Below, piece after piece: positions 47,290 to 61,804 of a stretch of DNA of 64,000 bases; positions within the stretch are counted from its first letter, which is position 1, and each line of letters starts with the position of its first letter. Source of the DNA: an uncultured Gammaproteobacteria bacterium. GTDB taxonomy: Bacteria; Patescibacteriota; Patescibacteriia; Patescibacteriales; UBA12465. The translations under genes were made by a program, and so were the position numbers. The stretch lies in NCBI GenBank assembly GCA_964616855.1, contig CAZTUJ010000001.1, positions 320,301 through 384,300 on the forward strand, in the 5' to 3' direction. The notes beneath the pieces were generated by a model. That model had not been told where the DNA came from and did not search any database. It worked only from the letters and a program-made list of their open reading frames with translations.

Positions 47290-48165
47290 ATGAAAAATCA
47301 CCGTTTAATTGTTGTTATTATCGCTTTAGTACCCGTCCTGCTATTTGGTCAGGAAAAAAAGAGTTCCTGGGAGCCATCCGTATATTCGGGTAGCGGATAT
47401 ATGTCTGATAATTCCGGTGACGGAATTTACACCTACGCTCAATTGGGAGCGATGAACAAGGTAAATAATCACCGCGCCGGCGCTTTTGCCAGCTTTGTCT
47501 GGGTAGATGTTAATTTCAACAACTACACCTATCAGGCTAAAGAATGGGCGGCTGGTTTTTCCTACGATACCTGGGGTAAGGTTAGTGACACCCGGAGTGC
47601 TAGTTTCTGGATTAGTCCCAGCCTTAAAATCTTCAATGATTATGGCTTAGACCACGCCAGCGGTACGGAAGCCTGGCAAAATGACTATGGTTGCCATATC
47701 AGCACGGGCGCTAATCTTAATGATAAGCGCAATCGTTGGTTTGGCAGTTATAAGTTGGCCGCTCAATTCCAAACTCCGTTTTGGTCAAAACGTACCGGCA
47801 CCTGGATTGATGATGGCGGTTATTTATCCGATCGGGTAAATTTTAAAGCGGTTAATAAAACCTACTTTAAAACCCAGTTCGAATCAACTGTTAAAAAAAT
47901 TGTCTTGCCCAAGCTACAACTGGAGCCAAAGTTGGTAGTTGCCTATCTTTATGATGGTGGCAGCCAAAACAGCATGTATGAGGGCGGCACCGGGGTAGCT
48001 ATTTCCTTTGTTAAAGGTGACCGCTATTTTGAAGTCGGTAGCATTCAGTATCGTGCCCGTTTCGGCGTTGAGATGAAAAATCGCTTTGATTTAATTGAGC
48101 TTAATTTAGATTTTATCAATTTAGGTCGCTTGATTTTTCCCGATAAAAAAAGCGCAAATAAATAG
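47290..48165 (+). CDS. Secreted protein with a beta-barrel-like alternating-strand pattern
   Basis: Signal peptide (LIVVIIALVPVLLFGQ), then about 12 short amphipathic aromatic-rich segments (AFASFVWVDVNF, WAAGFSYDTWG, YKLAAQFQTPF, KLVVAYLYDG, GVAISFVKG, VGSIQYRARFG). Confidence 0.55.
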   Translation: MKNHRLIVVIIALVPVLLFGQEKKSSWEPSVYSGSGYMSDNSGDGIYTYAQLGAMNKVNNHRAGAFASFVWVDVNFNNYTYQAKEWAAGFSYDTWGKVSDTRSASFWISPSLKIFNDYGLDHASGTEAWQNDYGCHISTGANLNDKRNRWFGSYKLAAQFQTPFWSKRTGTWIDDGGYLSDRVNFKAVNKTYFKTQFESTVKKIVLPKLQLEPKLVVAYLYDGGSQNSMYEGGTGVAISFVKGDRYFEVGSIQYRARFGVEMKNRFDLIELNLDFINLGRLIFPDKKSANK

Positions 48166-48468
48166 CGCTCAACTCGTTCTTTAAAAAGTCTGCTTTTTCT
48201 AAAAGCAGACTTTTTAATTTGTCAACTGTTTTCTGATGCGGAAGAGCTTGTGTTTATTGGCATTGTTTTTATTATGTGCTATAATATCCTTATAAACAGG
48301 GAACAATAATTTTAGGCTTAAATTTTACCTAGTAAATACAGGCTTGAAATCAATTTATCTTCTTGTTTATAAGTATTTATTTTTTTTAAATATTTTTAAT
48401 CGGCTCACTTGTTACGCCGACAGGCCTCTGCGCTTGTTGCTTCGTAATAAAGGCCCCATGCAAAGCGT

Positions 48469-48910: not shown

Positions 48911-49192
48911 TTAGGCTTCCGTTTGAGGCTTTATAGTCGTCGGTCGAGGCCAGTATTGGCCGAGTCCGAAGTCCATGAGTTTGTTTTTCAGCTTGGTGTT
49001 GCGCTGGAGATAGGCAATGAGAGAGGCTAGATCAATTTGATAGCGGTTGTTGATGACCTTGAATTTAAGGCCGCTGTCTGCCTTCAGGGCTCGGCGAATG
49101 GTTTTGTCTTTGACACCACCAAGCTTGGCGGCCTCAGAAACTGAGAGCCAAATCGGGTTTTTAATATTTAATATTTTGGGGCTACTAAACAT
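48911..49192 (-). CDS. Small helix-turn-helix DNA-binding protein (excisionase/MerR-type HTH)
   Basis: WLSVSEAAKLGGVKDKTIRRALKA is an HTH_17-like motif. Two palindromic operators lie in its leader. Confidence 0.65.
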   Translation of the reverse strand: MFSSPKILNIKNPIWLSVSEAAKLGGVKDKTIRRALKADSGLKFKVINNRYQIDLASLIAYLQRNTKLKNKLMDFGLGQYWPRPTTIKPQTEA

Positions 49193-49202
49193 TTATTTGC
49201 TA

Positions 49203-49230
49203 TTTAAGTCTAGAAAAATATAGACTTAAA
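49203..49230. promoter_or_regulatory. Palindromic operator copy 1 (TAAGTCTA-N8-TAGACTTA core)
   Basis: TTTAAGTCTA-GAAAAATA-TAGACTTAAA with perfect 10-bp arms, 11 nt upstream of the HTH gene start. Confidence 0.6.
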
Positions 49231-49263
49231 TAATAAATTATTTTAATAAAAGCTTCTTTTAAA

Positions 49264-49293
49264 TTTTAAGTCTATTACATAATAGACTTAAAA
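49264..49293. promoter_or_regulatory. Palindromic operator copy 2
   Basis: TTTTAAGTCTATT-ACAT-AATAGACTTAAAA with perfect 13-bp arms and the same core and core spacing as copy 1. Confidence 0.6.
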
Positions 49294-49309
49294 TGAGATT
49301 ATCAGCTTG

Positions 49310-49338
49310 ATAGTAGCAATAAAAAATAAAATCGTCAA
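49310..49338 (-). promoter_or_regulatory. Sigma70-type promoter of the HTH gene
   Basis: Minus strand TTGACG (49338-49333)-N17-TACTAT (49315-49310). Both operators lie downstream of it. Confidence 0.45.
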
Positions 49339-49572
49339 GAGCCAGGCTTAGACGAGATGAAGAAGAGAAGTGACGATTAGGCTTGAAAGCCGTCTATTAA
49401 TTAGCCGCTATAAATAGTGCCACAAGAAGATAAAGGGGACCTCTAGCGTATTAAAAAAAGGGGATAAATTATAAATCTTCTAATTTGCTTTTTTAAGCCT
49501 TTATGCTAGAATAAGAAGGTAAAATTTTGCTTTTAATAGAGAGGGCTTTGTCCCTTATTTTTGATTATTATC

Positions 49573-50160
49573 ATGACCGCTAATCTGGTTAAAAAATTCA
49601 AAGAGAAGCAATTACTGCAACAGCTCAAGAGTCACGACAAAGAAGCTTTTATCAAGGTCTACGATGAGTATGTCCAAGATATCTACCGCTTCGTGTATTT
49701 TAAGGTAGGTAAAGAAGAGGAATCGCAAGACCTTACTTCCATGATTTTTCTCAAGGCTTGGAACTATATCCAGGCCAACTCTTTAAGCGACAGTAAAACT
49801 CTGCGGGCTTTAGTCTATAAGATTGCCCGGACTTCCATTATTGATCACTATCGCGAAAGCAGTAGTAAGCTGGAAATTTCTTTAGATGATGAAAATCATC
49901 CGGTGGAAATAATCGATGACAAGCAAGACTTGGCTAAGGACTTAGACCAAGCGGCTGATCTGGCTTTAATTCGCAAGCAATTACCTTTATTAAAAGAAGA
50001 GTATCGTGAAGTCATTGTTTTGCGTTTTGTTAATGATTTGAGTCTGGAAGAAATTGCGGCGGTAACCGGTAAGAGCCGAGGTAATATCCGCGTCATCTTA
50101 CACCGGGCCTTAGCGGCCTTAAAAGAGATGGTAGAAGAAGAGGCGAAAGGGAAGAAGTAA
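49573..50160 (+). CDS. RNA polymerase sigma factor, ECF/sigma-70 group 4 family
   Basis: ATG at 49573. Region 2 (EAFIKVYDEYVQDIYRFVYFKV) and region 4 (REVIVLRFVNDLSLEEIAAVTGKSRGNIRVILHRAL). Confidence 0.85.
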   Translation: MTANLVKKFKEKQLLQQLKSHDKEAFIKVYDEYVQDIYRFVYFKVGKEEESQDLTSMIFLKAWNYIQANSLSDSKTLRALVYKIARTSIIDHYRESSSKLEISLDDENHPVEIIDDKQDLAKDLDQAADLALIRKQLPLLKEEYREVIVLRFVNDLSLEEIAAVTGKSRGNIRVILHRALAALKEMVEEEAKGKK

Positions 50161-50183: not shown

Positions 50184-50214
50184 AAATAAGCACCCCTAGG
50201 GGTGCTTATTTGTT
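50184..50214 (+). terminator. Intrinsic terminator after the sigma gene
   Basis: AATAAGCACCCC-TA-GGGGTGCTTATT palindromic hairpin followed by TTG/T-rich sequence. Confidence 0.7.
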
Positions 50215-50338
50215 GATAATCATTTCGGGATTAGACAGCCTTGACTATTATATTTTGGCATTTATTTTTTAGCCGTCAAATTGAAAAAGGTATAAATTAA
50301 TCAGTAATTATTATTGTATAAATAAGCTAAAATTCAAT

Positions 50339-50364
50339 ATAAGTCTAGATATACCTAGACTTAT
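50339..50364. promoter_or_regulatory. Palindromic operator copy 3
   Basis: ATAAGTCTAG-ATATAC-CTAGACTTAT with the same TAAGTCTA-N8-TAGACTTA core. Its centre is about 70 nt upstream of the ECF-type -35 element at 50419. Confidence 0.55.
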
Positions 50365-50418
50365 CTCTAAAAAATTAAATAAAGTGTAATAAAGACGGGC
50401 TATTTATGGCTTAAGTAC

Positions 50419-50448
50419 TGTAACAATTCGGACCTTTCTCCGTATATT
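50419..50448 (+). promoter_or_regulatory. ECF-type promoter TGTAAC-N16-CGTATATT
   Basis: TGTAAC at 50419-50424, a 16-nt spacer, CGTATATT at 50441-50448. The ORF's ATG is at 50456. Confidence 0.55.
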
Positions 50449-50455
50449 ATGGCGT

Positions 50456-51247
50456 ATGACTGACCACAACTTTATCAAACAATTAAAAGGACTGAAAACA
50501 ATGAACCCGGAAGCTGCTTGGTTAAAGAGCAACCGGGAGATTTTGTTATCCCAAATCGCCAACTCTGGCGCTAAGGAATTGTCTAACTGGCGGCGCTTAG
50601 TTATTGACTTGCGCAGCTTTACTCAGACTCTTTCCCAGCCCGCCTTGGCCTTAGGTTCACTCCTTCTGCTTTTCATTGGCGCTAGCGTCTTCGGACACTT
50701 AGCCTTTAACCGAACCAAGCCGAATGAATCCTTATATATCGCTCGTATCATTTCCGAGAAGGCTAAATTGAATACTATCTTTGATTCTCAAGAAAGAGAA
50801 AAGTTGGAAGCGCAGTTTGCTGCTAATCACGCTGAAGCTATCACCGAAATTTTAGCTGAGACCGTTATCGACGAATCCAATCAAGATCAGGTAGCGATGT
50901 TGAATGAAAAGTTTAACCATGAAGTTGATACCATGCGTGCTAAGATTGCCGCTACGAAACCGGCCCCTACTCCAGCTGAAACCGTTGCCACTCCGACCCC
51001 TAGCTCTGAAGAAGATTTAGTGGTTGCCGGCAATGGTAAGGAAGAAGATGGTTTGCAGTTAGAAATTAAAGATGATGGCAATGACGCTGTCGTTACCGCT
51101 ACTAATACCACGGAAGTTAAGCTTGAAGTCAGCCCCGTGAGCAAGGCTCCGGAAGAAATTTTAGAAGAAGCGAAAACTTTGTTTGATAATAAAGAGTACG
51201 ATAGCGCTTTGGATAAGCTTAAAGAAGTGAAGGAGCTGATTAAATAA
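50456..51247 (+). CDS. Single-pass membrane protein next to the ECF sigma (DUF5667-like / possible anti-sigma partner)
   Basis: 263-aa ORF with one TM segment (ALALGSLLLLFIGASVFGHLAF), a helical extracytoplasmic part and a T/P/E-rich tail. No HxxxCxxC zinc anti-sigma motif. The family call is from memory only. Confidence 0.6.
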   Translation: MTDHNFIKQLKGLKTMNPEAAWLKSNREILLSQIANSGAKELSNWRRLVIDLRSFTQTLSQPALALGSLLLLFIGASVFGHLAFNRTKPNESLYIARIISEKAKLNTIFDSQEREKLEAQFAANHAEAITEILAETVIDESNQDQVAMLNEKFNHEVDTMRAKIAATKPAPTPAETVATPTPSSEEDLVVAGNGKEEDGLQLEIKDDGNDAVVTATNTTEVKLEVSPVSKAPEEILEEAKTLFDNKEYDSALDKLKEVKELIK

Positions 51248-51886
51248 TCAGCCCTTTGGTCCGGTCGCCCGTATTTATTAGTTTGTCTCTGCAGTCGATG
51301 CCTTTTTAGAAGATCAGATTCCTGCATTCTTCCGATCTGGATTGTACTCGGAGATAAATTAATAAATCCCGGCGAACTCCGACGGCCGTGGATTTATCTA
51401 CAACCGCCGGAATAGCCCGGATAGCGGACCTAGTCAAGGTCGAATCCCATTAAGGGGAGGGTTACGCTCATTATAAATTAGAATGTTCTCCGGATAGATT
51501 TCCTTTGTTTCTGTACTGAAGGTGCTTCCAAGTTTTTTCTTGGGAGGGGCTAAGTCTGCAGGCGGACGAAAGGGAAAGTTCCCGTAGATTGATTAAGCTT
51601 TTCTCCAGCCTCGGCTAACACGCTTTGCCGGCTGGCAGTTCTTAATCGTTTTGTCAGTCCTTAAAAAGCTTGCTTCAACCGATGTGTTGGTGGAGCGGGA
51701 TTCCGATCAATCTATAAAATACTTTCCTCTTAAGTCTGAAAGCGGCGGTGCTCTCCTCAAATTAAAACCGAGCGGCACCCGTAAGAGCAGGACAGAAGAA
51801 TCCACTTGGAGAACTGAACCTCATCATTTATCAACTTGTTCTCACTACTATTGTGCGGACAGCTGTGAATGATTTAATTATTACTT
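51248..51886 (+). ncRNA. Candidate large structured RNA or long 5' UTR of the S-layer-like gene (unclassified)
   Basis: About 640 nt with no credible ORF in any frame, yet 42-57% G+C per 60-nt line (hand count). Multiple local helices, for example AGATAAAT/ATTTATCT, CCAGCC/GGCTGG, CTTCCAAG/CTTGGGAG. Confidence 0.35.
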
Positions 51887-54800
51887 ATGAAAAAATTACG
51901 CAAATTCTTAACCGTCAGCGTAATGGTATTATCTATCATCGCCATGAGCGGCTTGACTGTGAACACAGCCAGCGCTGCTGCCCAGGCCGGTGATTTGATT
52001 AAGATGGATGGCTTGTCCTCTGTCTACTACCTTGGCAATGATGGTAAGAGATATGTTTTCCCGAGCGAATCCGTGTACTTCTCTTGGTATCAGGATTTCA
52101 GCAGCGTGGTAACCATCCCCGCTTCTGAATTGCAGTCCTATCCTTTAGGCTCCAATGTGACCATGAGACCGGGCACCAAGCTCGTGAAGATTACTACTGA
52201 TCCTTCCGTTTACGCTGTTACTCCTAATGGCGTTTTACGCAAGATCGCTAGCGAATCCGATGCAATCACCCTCTATGGCACCAATTGGGCTAAGATGGTT
52301 GTTGACGTCGCTGACGCTTTCTTCACCAACTACACTGTTGGCACTCCTTTAACTTCTGGCACTTACCCTGCTGGTACTTTGTTAAAGAATGCTAACAATG
52401 CTAGCGTTTACTACTTTGACGGCACCAACTATCGCATGATTGCGAGCGAAGCTGCTTTCAATGCCAATCGTTTCTCCTTCAGCAACGTGATCACCACCGG
52501 CATGACTTTGTCTGCTTCTGGTAACAGCGTTACTGCTAAAGAAGATATTTCCAGCCCGACTGGTGGCGTTGGTACTGTAATCACTGGCTCCGGTTTAACC
52601 GTAGCTTTGTCTGCGGCTACCCCGGCTTCCATGAACATCCCGACCGGCTCCCCGGCTAACTTCTTTGCTTTTAATTTAACCGCTGCCAATGATGGCGCTG
52701 TTAACGTTTCTAGCTTGAAGTTAACTGCTTATGAATTGGGTACTGCTGCTAACATTGATGACGTTACCATTTTTGATAACGGCGTTAAGGTTGGTACCTC
52801 TAAGAATATCAATTCTGACAAGGAAGCAGTTTTTGCTTTTGCTAACCCGATTTATGTAGCTGCTGGTACCACCAAGACTTTAACCGTCAAGGCTACCACT
52901 GCCGCTGCTGGTGACTATGCTTTAGGTATTGCCAAGGCTGCTGATATCACTGCCACCGCTGCTACCGTTTCCGGTTCATTCCCGGTTCGCGGTAATAAGA
53001 TGTCTGCTGTTGTCTCTAGCAATGTTGGTACTTTAGCAATGAGCTCTGTTGATACTACTGATTCCACCGTTGATTTCGGTGAGGATGACGTGTTATTAGC
53101 TAGCTTCAATTTAACTGCTAACAATGAAGATGCCTTAGTTACCTCCATGAAGTTCAAGAATGGCAGCACCAATGTTGACGGTATCATCTCCAATTTGAAG
53201 ATGTTAATCGACGGCACTGAAGTTGCTTCTGGTACTTATGCTGATAGCTATGCTACTTTCTCTTTGAATAACTTCAAGGTAGAAAAGGGTGATTCTGTTA
53301 CCGTGGAAGTCCGCGGCGACATGGGCACCACCAATGTCGGCGACAAGGTGACCCTTTACTTAAAGGATCGTGCTGATATCGCTGCCATCGGTGCAACTTA
53401 TGGCTATGATTTACAGTTAGATACTACCAGCTTCCAGAGACTCGACACCGTTACCGAAGGTATGACTTTGACTTTAGCTGCTAGCGACTTCACCCTCGAT
53501 GCTGATAAGGCTGCTACTCCGGCTAAGGATATCAAGGCTGGCGACAATGACGTTGTCTTAGCTACCATCAAGATGAAATCCAATGGCGAAAATGCCACTT
53601 TGGAAGAAATCACTGGTGCTGGCAACTTCACCATCGTTGGTACTGCTTTATTAGTTGACGAAGTGAAGAATGTCCGCATGATTGATGTCACTTCTGGCGC
53701 TACTTATGATTTAGATGCTACTTTCAGCACTGATCATTATGAATTGACTTTGTCTGATGAAATCTCCTTCACTAAGGGTGTGACCAAGACTTTCGTAGTT
53801 AAAGCTGACATCGACGATCTCGCCGATGCTAACGATACCTTGAAAGTTCACTTAGAAGCCGACGGCATGAAAGTGACCGGCGATGTTTCTAACTCTTCTA
53901 TCACTGATATTACCCCGAGCCAAATCGATGGTTCTATCATGACCGTGAAGGATGCTTCTTTATCTTGGAACGTCACCAACTTAACCGCTAAGACTGTGGT
54001 TACTGGTGCTTCTAACATTGAAGTTTATCAGGCTAAATTGAAGGCGGGTGCGGCTGATGGCGTGAAACTTAACTCTTTGAAGTTAAGCACCACTGCTAAC
54101 AACGCTACCAATTTCACCGACAACAACATCACCAAGCTTGACCTTTATATTAATGGTCAGTTAGTGAAGTCTGTTTCCAATAACATTGTTGAAGCTGTTA
54201 ACGGAGTTTCTGTTGGTACTATTACCTTCAATTCTTTATCCAGCAACACCATCAATGCTAACCAGGAAGTTGACTTAGTAGTGAAAGCTACTTTCTCTTC
54301 CAGCTTCTCCGGTGCTAATACCTTTGCTTTACAGGTCGCTCAGGAAGCCGATATCAATGCGAAATCTGTGACCGGTAACAAGGTTGTTGACATCACTGGT
54401 GGTATCACTGGTGGTGCTCGCACCATCACCTTGGCTACTATGGGTACTTTGAAGGTTGAATTATTAACCTCCGATACCAATGCTAGCCAGGATCAGTACG
54501 TTTTGGCCGGTGCTACTTCTGCTTCCAAATATTTGGGCGAATTGAAGTTCACCACCGCCAATGAGCCGGTTAAGGTCAAGACTTTGACTTTGACTTCTCT
54601 TGCCAACGACACCAGCTCTGACATTAAAGAAGTTAGATTGGTGAAGGCTGACGGCACTGTTGTTGCTTCTAAGACTGTTGAAGCTGACGGCGATGTAGTA
54701 TTTGACACCTTCGATGTTACTTTCGATGCTGACAAATCTACCTCTCTCTTCATTTCTACCTTAGCTAGAGGTATTAATGTTGACGGCGATGCCACTGCTA

Positions 54801-55459
54801 CTGCTACCCAGGGTCATGCTATTCAGTATAACCTCGGTGCAGGTGCGGCTATCACTGCTGAAGGTGTCAACTCTGGTGAAGCTATCACTATGATTGCCAA
54901 TGATAATGGTACTTTAATTGCCGGCGAATGGGATGATGACAGCTCTACTAAGACTCACACCATCACTGCCGTTAAGTTAAACTCCGTTGTTAACGCGATG
55001 ACCAATGGCACCTTATCTTCTGGTCGCCAGGATATCGCTAAGTACACTTTGACCTTCGAACATGGTAACAACCGCGATGCTAACAATGATGCTTACAAGG
55101 CTCAGTTAGATTATCTCGCTTTAACCATTAACCAGAGCGGTGCTACAACCACCAATTTGACCTTGAAGGTTGACGGTACTACCCGCGAAGTTGCGGATTC
55201 TGCCTCTGCTGGCGTCTGGACTTCTACGGAATTACAGCATGTCACCACTGGTCTCTTGAATCTTGCTAAGGTTGATGACGTTGTGACTTTAGTTGTTTCT
55301 GCTGATATCGCTATCGATACTCAGGCCAACAACTACAGCGTTCAGACCGTTATCAGCGACTTAAATGGCGCTGGTGGTAACGATTCTATCCGCCACAACA
55401 GCTTGACGAACATGTACTTACCGTACACCTCCGTCACTGGTGCGAACTTGACCAACTAA
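51887..55459 (+). CDS. Large secreted surface (S-layer-like) protein
   Basis: Sec signal peptide (LSIIAMSGLTVNTASAAAQA). Thr/Val/Ala/Asn-rich, Cys-free. Three short N-terminal SVYY...G..R.I.SE repeats, then 6-7 divergent beta-rich modules of about 115-125 aa. Codon usage is visibly biased. Confidence 0.75.
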   Translation: MKKLRKFLTVSVMVLSIIAMSGLTVNTASAAAQAGDLIKMDGLSSVYYLGNDGKRYVFPSESVYFSWYQDFSSVVTIPASELQSYPLGSNVTMRPGTKLVKITTDPSVYAVTPNGVLRKIASESDAITLYGTNWAKMVVDVADAFFTNYTVGTPLTSGTYPAGTLLKNANNASVYYFDGTNYRMIASEAAFNANRFSFSNVITTGMTLSASGNSVTAKEDISSPTGGVGTVITGSGLTVALSAATPASMNIPTGSPANFFAFNLTAANDGAVNVSSLKLTAYELGTAANIDDVTIFDNGVKVGTSKNINSDKEAVFAFANPIYVAAGTTKTLTVKATTAAAGDYALGIAKAADITATAATVSGSFPVRGNKMSAVVSSNVGTLAMSSVDTTDSTVDFGEDDVLLASFNLTANNEDALVTSMKFKNGSTNVDGIISNLKMLIDGTEVASGTYADSYATFSLNNFKVEKGDSVTVEVRGDMGTTNVGDKVTLYLKDRADIAAIGATYGYDLQLDTTSFQRLDTVTEGMTLTLAASDFTLDADKAATPAKDIKAGDNDVVLATIKMKSNGENATLEEITGAGNFTIVGTALLVDEVKNVRMIDVTSGATYDLDATFSTDHYELTLSDEISFTKGVTKTFVVKADIDDLADANDTLKVHLEADGMKVTGDVSNSSITDITPSQIDGSIMTVKDASLSWNVTNLTAKTVVTGASNIEVYQAKLKAGAADGVKLNSLKLSTTANNATNFTDNNITKLDLYINGQLVKSVSNNIVEAVNGVSVGTITFNSLSSNTINANQEVDLVVKATFSSSFSGANTFALQVAQEADINAKSVTGNKVVDITGGITGGARTITLATMGTLKVELLTSDTNASQDQYVLAGATSASKYLGELKFTTANEPVKVKTLTLTSLANDTSSDIKEVRLVKADGTVVASKTVEADGDVVFDTFDVTFDADKSTSLFISTLARGINVDGDATATATQGHAIQYNLGAGAAITAEGVNSGEAITMIANDNGTLIAGEWDDDSSTKTHTITAVKLNSVVNAMTNGTLSSGRQDIAKYTLTFEHGNNRDANNDAYKAQLDYLALTINQSGATTTNLTLKVDGTTREVADSASAGVWTSTELQHVTTGLLNLAKVDDVVTLVVSADIAIDTQANNYSVQTVISDLNGAGGNDSIRHNSLTNMYLPYTSVTGANLTN

Positions 55460-55695
55460 GTTTACTTAGTAATTCAAGTGGTTCCTCAGTTTTCCTTAAA
55501 AGCTGAGTAGCAATAAGAGCCCGCGCAAGCGGGCTCTTTTGTTTTCTTTATTATCTTTGTTTAGGGGGCGGAGAAGAGTAAATAAAGACTTAAGAATTAT
55601 CTTAATTAAGGGTTATTACTTATCCACAGCCCCCGCTCTTGCCTTTCGGTTTAGTTTCGGGTATAATATTATTATTAATAAATAAGCCTGAAAAT

Positions 55696-61427: not shown

Positions 61428-61804
61428 TGTTAATCGGGGCAAGTAAGCGGCCGCTTTTTTGCGCTATATGGCGTTAAAAAGAGGAAAGTCCGGACTTCTT
61501 AAAAAAGGCAGCGGGTAATGCCCGCCAAGAGTAATCTTAGGGAAAGTGCCACAGAGACGATACTATTTTATTCTTCGGAATAGAAGAAAGGTGAAAAGTT
61601 GCCTGGTACCCTTCGGGGTTACAGGCTTCGGCCGCCGGTAACGGCGTGTTCGCGGTAAACCCTGCCTGAAGCAAGAGCAAAGCCTGATAGAACGCTTGCG
61701 TTTTATTTGGTAAAAAGTAGCTCGCTTGACCTGACCGGCAACGGTTAGGCTAGATAAATGGCCGCTCCCGACAGAATCCGGCTTATCGCTTGCCCCTCTT
61801 AACC
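61428..61804 (+). ncRNA. rnpB: RNase P RNA, bacterial type A (ends +/- 10 nt)
   Basis: Universal P4 strands GAGGAAAGTCCGGAC (61481-61495) and ACAGAATCCGGCTTATCG (about 61771-61788). GGGTAATGCCCGCC and GGGAAAGTGCCACAGA blocks. P1 pairing GGGGCAAG/CTTGCCCC. Confidence 0.9.

Follow-up and report, generated by a model that had tools for sequence, protein, structure and literature searches.

The segment between positions 51248 and 51886 of the window, a stretch of 64,000 nucleotides (nt) taken from contig CAZTUJ010000001.1 of assembly GCA_964616855.1, holds a conserved RNA structure on the + strand that is strictly cis-linked to the surface-protein gene following it. This RNA is a new structured family without a match in Rfam. 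The segment is bounded upstream by the gene of a DUF5667-like sigma-factor partner and downstream by the gene of a protein of 1190 amino acids (aa), and we think it probable that it forms a very long, multi-domain structured 5' leader of the surface-protein mRNA, which would stabilise that mRNA and probably switch its expression. An earlier, sequence-only reading of this DNA had offered three explanations for the segment, namely a long structured 5' untranslated region (UTR), an independent non-coding RNA (ncRNA) and a fully decayed gene; the first is now the best supported, the second is weakened and the third is rejected.

When the 639-nt region was searched with blastn, the nearest relative showed 93% identity, and nine further genomes matched at 72-79% nt identity over 470-640 nt, while their surface proteins are just 37-55% identical. 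Sigma-partner proteins share just ~52-65% aa identity among relatives whose leaders are 72-79% identical; the sigma factors of the blastn-matched genomes are 76-89% identical, and the conservation of the RNA tracks organismal relatedness. At the nt level, the leader matches the sigma and HU coding sequences in conservation and greatly exceeds the ordinary sigma/anti-sigma spacer. Moreover, it contains invariant runs of 12-15 nt, reaching ~30 nt among the closest relatives, which lack a 3-nt periodicity.

The linkage to the gene is strict. More than 1000 homologues of the surface protein were found in Patescibacteria, 46 were aligned (A1), and 80 species-level genome loci were retrieved from them. 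A covariance model (CM) of the conserved core D2, R1, recovers the element in 72 of these 80 loci and in the window, always on the + strand directly upstream of the gene, with only three stray weak matches in 0.93 Mb. Metagenome contigs were also scanned with a protein-independent DNA pattern, AGCTTTTCTCCA-N65-95-GCGGGATTCCGA, which joins two invariant D2 blocks. It occurs in 114 contigs, once in each; every contig with ~280 nt or more of downstream sequence carries the surface-protein gene on the same strand, the ATG lying 101-208 nt after D2. The RNA is single-copy, with one per locus and one in the window, and no copy turned up elsewhere than beside this gene, whether in ~1.6 Mb of related DNA (194 fetched loci), in the window or in the 114 pattern contigs. 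Across the 72 of 80 genomes and the 114 contigs it is associated with a single gene family. The leaders range from 450 to 690 nt and fall into two length classes, a majority of 450-550 nt and a class of 625-690 nt to which the window belongs, the leader in the window being ~620 nt long.

That the conserved object is a folded RNA follows from its base pairs. The minimum free energy of the segment lies below that of dinucleotide shuffles on both strands, but much further below on the + strand (z = -6.6) than on the - strand (z = -4.2). G.U is far commoner than A.C in the covarying helices (334:48), and therefore the + strand is the folded RNA strand. Of the 22 pairs predicted for the long 5' hairpin D1a (46 sequences), 10 show compensatory changes (e.g. 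GC:33/AU:13 and GC:33/CG:13), and D1a is 95% paired compared with 40-44% in slid controls. The small junction D1b is 94% and 88% paired, with compensatory changes at 4 and 6 pairs, and the start-proximal hairpin D3 (60 sequences) shows them at 11 of 16 pairs, such as AU:29/GC:17/CG:4 and GC:26/AU:16/CG:12. In an alifold prediction from 11 sequences, the subgroup-specific hairpin D1x pairs 51379-85 with 51404-10 and 51388-92 with 51397-401, one pair varying as GC:5/UA:3/AU:2.

A long-range helix, LR, joins the two ends of a core of ~330 nt (~51485-51814; V1, D2 and V2) that measures ~250 nt in most relatives. Its complementarity is kept in more than 20 sequence variants among 49 distinct leaders, including UUCAAUUC/GAAUUGAA, UUCGAUUC/GAAUCGAA, UUCAGUCC/GGACUGAA and AAUAUUUUUCG/CGAAAGAUAUU, and the mean uninterrupted helix is 8.39 nt as against 6.40 +/- 0.19 nt with permuted partners (0/500). 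A single-column mutual covariation scan for pseudoknots gave mostly phylogenetic noise, except for the lead to LR. It was also considered that the invariant CUUUUCUCC might pair with GGAGAA, a purine-rich stretch preceding D3, but this was rejected, as that stretch pairs with the strand after D1b to form LR. Another candidate, in which RNAalifold pairs UUAUAA (51471-76) with the region around the start codon, was left as unproven: its two sides are near-invariant, the variants UUAGAA and UUACUA are uncompensated and the slid controls are high.

Within the core, V1 cannot be aligned among relatives, yet it folds as a single long rod in 10/10 close relatives (z = -0.8 to -3.2). The CTTCCAAG/CTTGGGAG hairpin at 51524-51547, one of the local helices listed by the sequence-only reading, is the tip of this rod; the rod recurs in those relatives with unrelated sequence. 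Two other helices of that list fared less well. AGATAAAT/ATTTATCT and the enclosed AAATCC/GGATTT (I4/I5) are present in the window, but covariation does not support them and they compete with the D1a stem; in L027 and L030 the 3' strand of D1a is altered with no matching change downstream, and these helices at 51352-51399 were discarded. GGGA/TCCC (51572-51583) is likewise present, though relatives do not conserve its 5' half.

D2 is the conserved core domain. In an alignment of 41 sequences (A3), 98.5% of its cells are paired, compared with 16-45% in slid controls; in the CM alignment, 96.3% are paired and 17 of 23 pairs show compensatory changes. P1 of D2 covaries at four positions in the former alignment and at seven in the latter. 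The motifs UUAAGCUUUUCUCCA and GCGGGAUUCCGA are invariant or nearly so, and only D2 extends to the most distant relatives, D1a and D3 being beyond detection by sequence there. The CCAGCC/GGCTGG helix (51605-51635) picked out in the sequence-only reading covaries and is P2 of this domain. The GGCUGG strand of P2 has, in addition, a second conserved partner further downstream: P2 is 98.3% paired and the alternative helix 95.1%, again with slid controls at 16-45%. Where GGCUGG varies (GACUGG, AGCUGG), one or both partner strands change to match, and in a permuted-partner test with 76 sequences both helices exceed their controls (z = 5.2 and 7.3). The two helices are mutually exclusive and both are supported, which suggests a conformational switch.

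Other features of D2 can be mentioned here. The invariant AAGCUUUU (51595-51602) is perfectly complementary to AAAAGCUU (51664-51671), 61 nt downstream, in the long subgroup (I7), with 4 bp in the short subgroup; this would be a possible further alternative pairing. In the distant D2 variants (L034, L041, L072, L013, L010, L029, L059 and L073), located ~100-250 nt upstream of the gene, a hairpin with a conserved CCCAUG loop takes the place of the P3 region, and repeated GCUUAU/AUAAGC strands allow alternative pairings, a similar ambiguity. The P2 hairpin with its U-rich tail (51625-51648) was considered as a terminator and rejected, as this arrangement exists in the long subgroup only, the tail being AACUU... 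in most relatives.

Table 1. Features of the RNA element, its transcription signals and the adjoining genes (positions in the window)
Feature	Position	Strand	Remarks
D1a, long 5' hairpin	51265-51375	+	basal stem 51265-51289 : 51351-51375 (inverted repeat I1); conserved apical GAAGAU... part
D1x, extra hairpin	51379-51410	+	long (window-type) subgroup only
D1b, small three-way junction	51423-51468	+	AGCG/CGCU closes GACC..GGUC and UCCC..GGGA hairpins; holds conserved GGUCGA
Single-stranded linker (C)AUUAUAAAUUAGAAU	51469-51484	+	CCUUAUAAA-type motif (UUAUAAA-type) conserved in both subgroups
LR, long-range helix GUUCUCCGG : UUGGAGAAC	51485-51493 : 51806-51814	+	covariation in 49 distinct leaders
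V1, variable rod	51494-51583	+	contains CUUCCAAG/CUUGGGAG hairpin 51524-51547
D2, conserved core	51584-51715	+	P1, P2, alternative helix, invariant motifs
P1 of D2	51584-93 : 51706-15	+	compensatory changes
Invariant UUAAGCUUUUCUCCA in D2	51593-51607	+	
P2 of D2, CCAGCC : GGCUGG	51605-10 : 51630-35	+	
Alternative partner of GGCUGG, GUCAGUC	51653-59	+	
Invariant GCGGGAUUCCGA in D2	51695-51706	+	carries CGG/CCG mini-hairpin
V2, variable A-rich linker	51716-51805	+	poorly conserved
D3, start-proximal hairpin	51824-51872	+	conserved loop CUACUAUUG; covariation
AU-rich spacer UUUAAUUAUUACUU, AUG at 51887, invariant stretch AAAAAAUUACGC	51873-51901	+	no Shine-Dalgarno sequence
Putative sigma-70-like promoter TAAAGA-17-AATAAT	51220-51248	+	overlaps DUF5667 stop codon; inferred
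Intrinsic terminator after surface gene	55515-55548	+	10-bp stem, 7 G-C pairs, then U tract
Surface-protein gene	51887-55459	+	1190 aa (~1200 aa in family), signal peptide, immunoglobulin (Ig)-like beta-sandwich chain
DUF5667-like membrane protein, putative anti-sigma partner	50456-51247	+	weak DUF5667 match
Extracytoplasmic function (ECF)-type sigma factor gene	49561-50160	+	Pfam Sigma70_r2/r4/ECF; neighbourhood gene, outside RNA

We favour the 5' leader because of the position and strand of the element, its constrained distance from the ATG, its freedom from terminators and the continuation of its conservation through the start codon. The suggestion of a long structured 5' UTR made in the sequence-only reading thus agrees with an element that always lies on the strand of the gene and immediately upstream of it, and with a terminator that comes only after the gene; no canonical intrinsic terminator was found within 51248-51886, where there is only one weak match. 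The twelve nt after the AUG (AAAAAAUUACGC) are invariant in 60 leaders, although ATGAARAA had served as a selection filter, so that only TTACGC is independent. At synonymous sites, codons 4-5 (UUACGC) are invariant in 60/60 leaders and codons 2-3 (AAAAAA) almost wholly so, and the invariance of UUACGC hints at a constraint at the RNA level on the start region.

Transcription would start from a promoter that overlaps the last codons of DUF5667, with the 5' end a few nt before D1a. This placement comes from three observations. Among 58 distinct relatives, the best -10-like hexamers (TAAAAT, AATAAT) cluster 28-33 nt before a TTAGTTT anchor, within the last DUF5667 codons; the window has 17 nt between the DUF5667 stop codon and D1a, and in several relatives the two adjoin; and in three loci (L117, L147 and L158) a terminator-like hairpin separates D1a from the upstream gene, and therefore the leader would be able to start on its own there. 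The D1a stem begins at most ~10 nt after the predicted start.

From 5' to 3', the proposed leader would be built of D1a, D1b, the single-stranded linker, LR enclosing V1 and D2, D3, the AU-rich spacer and the AUG. By analogy with the mRNAs of surface-layer (S-layer) and outer-membrane proteins, D1a and the compact fold may shield the mRNA from decay that depends on the 5' end. We propose that D2 is a binding site or switch for a factor, which could be a protein, a ligand or the ribosome, that tunes expression, while D3 and the AU-rich spacer would present the start codon, the genome making no use of Shine-Dalgarno sequences. The latter property is clear in the window, as 48 of its 54 long open reading frames (ORFs) have no GGAG-like motif at -20..-4 and the upstream regions are AU-rich: the genome is essentially Shine-Dalgarno-free.

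Several points weigh against the leader. A stricter promoter scan of the + strand of 51248-51886 returned none, the promoter call consisting of weak matches to an AT-rich consensus. Conserved unpaired stretches and a self-closed core are more typical of autonomous ncRNAs than of stabilising UTRs. The covariation controls are shuffles, slid controls and permuted partners, which correct only partly for phylogeny; the alternative helices of D2 stem from few independent substitution events, and an alignment derived from a CM is biased towards its model. Finally, the 1190-aa protein is no more than a candidate as regards both its S-layer identity and its high expression.

The strongest competitor is an autonomous or excised structured ncRNA, in which the LR-closed core or the whole element, transcribed separately or cut out of the leader, would be a stable RNA that functions in trans or in a ribonucleoprotein (RNP), co-regulation keeping it beside the surface gene. 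We regard this as unlikely, though well worth keeping in mind, because the core is self-closed and is the sole part persisting in the most distant relatives. Core ends joined by a covarying helix are found in many stable ncRNAs, D2 carries long invariant unpaired motifs, and the size and conservation of the element resemble those of large orphan bacterial ncRNAs. However, although the genome uses strong canonical terminators, none follows D2, V2 or D3, and a 3' end of its own could come only from processing; the ATG is close by, within a constrained range; D3 and the start codon share in the conservation; and the RNA was never found apart from this gene in the DNA surveyed above.

Less probable still, and in our view doubtful, is an intercistronic processing or stability element of a sigma/anti-sigma/surface-protein operon, transcribed from an ECF-sigma promoter upstream and processed at D1a to give a stable 5' end. 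The order of sigma, anti-sigma, RNA and gene in nearly all loci would fit this, as would the many loci where the anti-sigma stop abuts D1a and leaves no intergenic room for a promoter, the gap in the window being 17 nt without a terminator. Against it stand the terminator-like hairpins before D1a in the three loci named above and the -10-like hexamers at a fixed distance from D1a. It differs from the 5' leader solely in the transcription start site, and if true it would couple the output of surface protein to the circuit of sigma and anti-sigma factors.

Two or more promoters are common in S-layer genes (PMC3666127), and AT-rich TATAAA-like motifs occur after D1b and D2, so one could imagine a regulatory region acting at the DNA level, with tandem promoters and operators, instead of an RNA. 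This is very improbable, since the helices are maintained by compensatory changes, the G.U to A.C ratio makes sense only for one transcribed strand, and the variable regions keep their shape and not their sequence.

The coding content of the segment bears on the decayed gene. As the sequence-only reading had stated, the segment is free of substantial ORFs: the sole one of at least 60 aa inside it is a TTG ORF of 73 aa (51651-51872), and a minus-strand ORF at 50887-51327 overlaps just the first 80 nt. Among 44 non-redundant homologous leaders, the longest ORF (median 53 aa) varies in strand and position, and thus no ORF is conserved. That reading had also held the lack of a ribosome-binding site against the TTG ORF, an argument that is uninformative here because 48/54 window genes have no Shine-Dalgarno motif. 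The GC-rich composition it described is confirmed, with a coding-like G+C of 0.435-0.485 compared with 0.245-0.31 in the spacers at 48100-48400, 49100-49400 and 50200-50500. The minus-strand ORF (146 aa, ATG) is antisense to the 3' end of the DUF5667 gene, of low complexity and rich in Ser and Leu, and is probably spurious. A fully decayed protein-coding gene, to which the coding-like G+C and the 73-aa ORF might point, can be dismissed: six-frame translations matched no Pfam family, no ORF is conserved, the invariant runs lack a 3-nt periodicity, the leader retains 72-79% nt identity where the sigma-partner protein retains ~52-65% aa identity, and the segment is under purifying selection with RNA-type covariation, including compensatory pairs, across more than 150 loci.

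With regard to known RNAs, a search of the whole window against Rfam 15 at the gathering threshold gave nothing at the segment, and relaxing it to E<=10 for 50900-52200 produced only two chance snoRNA-like matches of ~14 bits. Nine related loci yielded tRNAs only, ARAGORN found no tRNA or tmRNA in the segment, and full-text literature searches returned no description of this RNA. The sequence-only reading had recognised no known RNA family and had named OLE, GOLLD, ROOL and HEARO as families to check; its impression is upheld by the lack of a match in Rfam 15.

The nearest functional parallels are found among the leaders of other envelope-protein mRNAs. In Lactobacillus, S-layer mRNAs owe half-lives of 14-15 min to their long structured 5' UTRs (PMC3666127). 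Like the untranslated leader sequence (UTLS) of slpA in Lactobacillus acidophilus and L. crispatus, the RNA described here lies upstream of a large secreted surface-protein gene, folds strongly and would carry a hairpin close to or at its predicted 5' end. In contrast to the UTLS, it is several times longer (450-690 nt), combines five or more covarying modules with a closing helix of long range and with invariant unpaired motifs, and is kept in sequence across 72/80 species genomes and not in a few species. It has no sequence or Rfam relationship to known S-layer leaders. The E. coli ompA leader is ~130 nt long with two simple hairpins, and its 5'-terminal stem-loop protects against RNases that depend on the 5' end. 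Here, too, a stable hairpin would lie a few nt from the inferred 5' end of an envelope-protein mRNA, but D1a is just the first of several conserved domains. The element goes beyond known leaders in its size, in its closed multi-domain fold, and in an invariant core with alternative helices across 72/80 genomes.

In other respects the RNA resembles OLE, GOLLD, ROOL, HEARO and raiA, which also extend over hundreds of nt and are multi-helical with strong covariation and invariant unpaired nt; it came to light as a long G+C-rich, ORF-free spacer of an AT-rich genome. Unlike them, it is cis-linked to one gene family and continuous with the start codon. The conserved folded domain in a 5' leader, with GGCUGG pairing with either of two conserved partners, also recalls riboswitches. 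D2 has the features of a conserved, covarying domain of the ligand-binding type (96-98% paired, compensatory changes in 17/23 pairs, invariant unpaired motifs), but no conserved terminator or Shine-Dalgarno-sequestering helix is attached to it as an expression platform. Moreover, the D2 switch lies 170-250 nt from a start codon without a Shine-Dalgarno sequence, and it serves a single gene family and no metabolic regulon.

The ultra-small bacteria of the Patescibacteria, or candidate phyla radiation (CPR), combine tiny genomes with spacers that are short and AT-rich. That a highly ordered RNA of 450-690 nt is kept before one gene in 72/80 species genomes implies an important function. It is tempting to speculate, although we do so only tentatively, that the LR-closed core represents a new Patescibacteria-specific class of large RNA switch or RNP scaffold, which would sense, for example, envelope or host-contact status and set the production of the main surface protein, or else an excised stable RNA with a function of its own. 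In either case it would join the very few bacterial structured RNAs that exceed 400 nt without being universal. Structured RNAs of large size are uncommon, and the study of those known has mostly paid off. This one is tied to the gene of the probable main surface protein in organisms whose life is spent attached to other cells, and it could offer a handle on surface-protein control in a lineage in which almost nothing is known of regulation. In practical terms, it may serve as a ready-made 5' element for Patescibacteria expression tools, as a well-defined target for structure probing or cryo-EM and, through AGCTTTTCTCCA...GCGGGATTCCGA, as a sequence marker that locates the locus in metagenomes.

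The 1190-aa protein is a plausible candidate for a major surface or S-layer protein. Searches of Pfam and NCBIfam gave no family, and a PDB search returned nothing informative. The AlphaFold2 model (pLDDT, the predicted local distance difference test score, of 84) has a mixed domain at the N terminus and, after it, an all-beta chain of Ig-like sandwich domains, for which Foldseek found generic Ig-like repeats only. The protein evolves much faster than its neighbours, with 45% aa identity in L018, where the sigma factor reaches 89%, while identity over its first ~250 residues is 60-90%, a pattern that points to diversifying selection or to a swapping of the distal domains.

In nearly all loci the gene order is HU, a helix-turn-helix gene, sigma, the DUF5667 protein, an ORF-free gap of 400-690 nt and the surface protein. 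The DUF5667 gene precedes the RNA in every locus or contig with enough upstream room, and the ECF sigma gene is syntenic in nearly all related loci. The top NCBIfam match of the sigma factor is the BldN family, under the cutoff of that family. BldN in Streptomyces is a regulator of surface-sheath proteins, and the BldN-like match may be a lead for the role of a sigma/anti-sigma pair adjoining a surface-protein gene. The window is Falkowbacteria-like: the closest homologues come from metagenome-assembled genomes of Falkowbacteria, Parcubacteria and Patescibacteria, and the same proteins are also found on a Joint Genome Institute (JGI) metagenome contig. Some of the 80 genome records are titled 'uncultured Gammaproteobacteria', 'Bacillota bacterium', 'Halanaerobium sp.' or 'Nanoarchaeia archaeon' despite a typical Patescibacteria locus, and are probably mislabelled or mis-binned.

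A group of JGI contigs of ~4.0 kb (L088, L093, L126, L145, L160, L103, L111, L124, L119 and L087) holds exactly the leader downstream of D1a and the gene, ending 1-60 nt past the stop codon, before the terminator. These contigs may derive from transcripts, or from assembly breaks at hairpins; their ends vary and coincide with inverted repeats, and their use as a proxy for transcript ends was set aside. Elsewhere in the window, a full-length bacterial RNase P RNA of class A (233.5 bits) at 61435-61801 on the + strand is the sole Rfam match.

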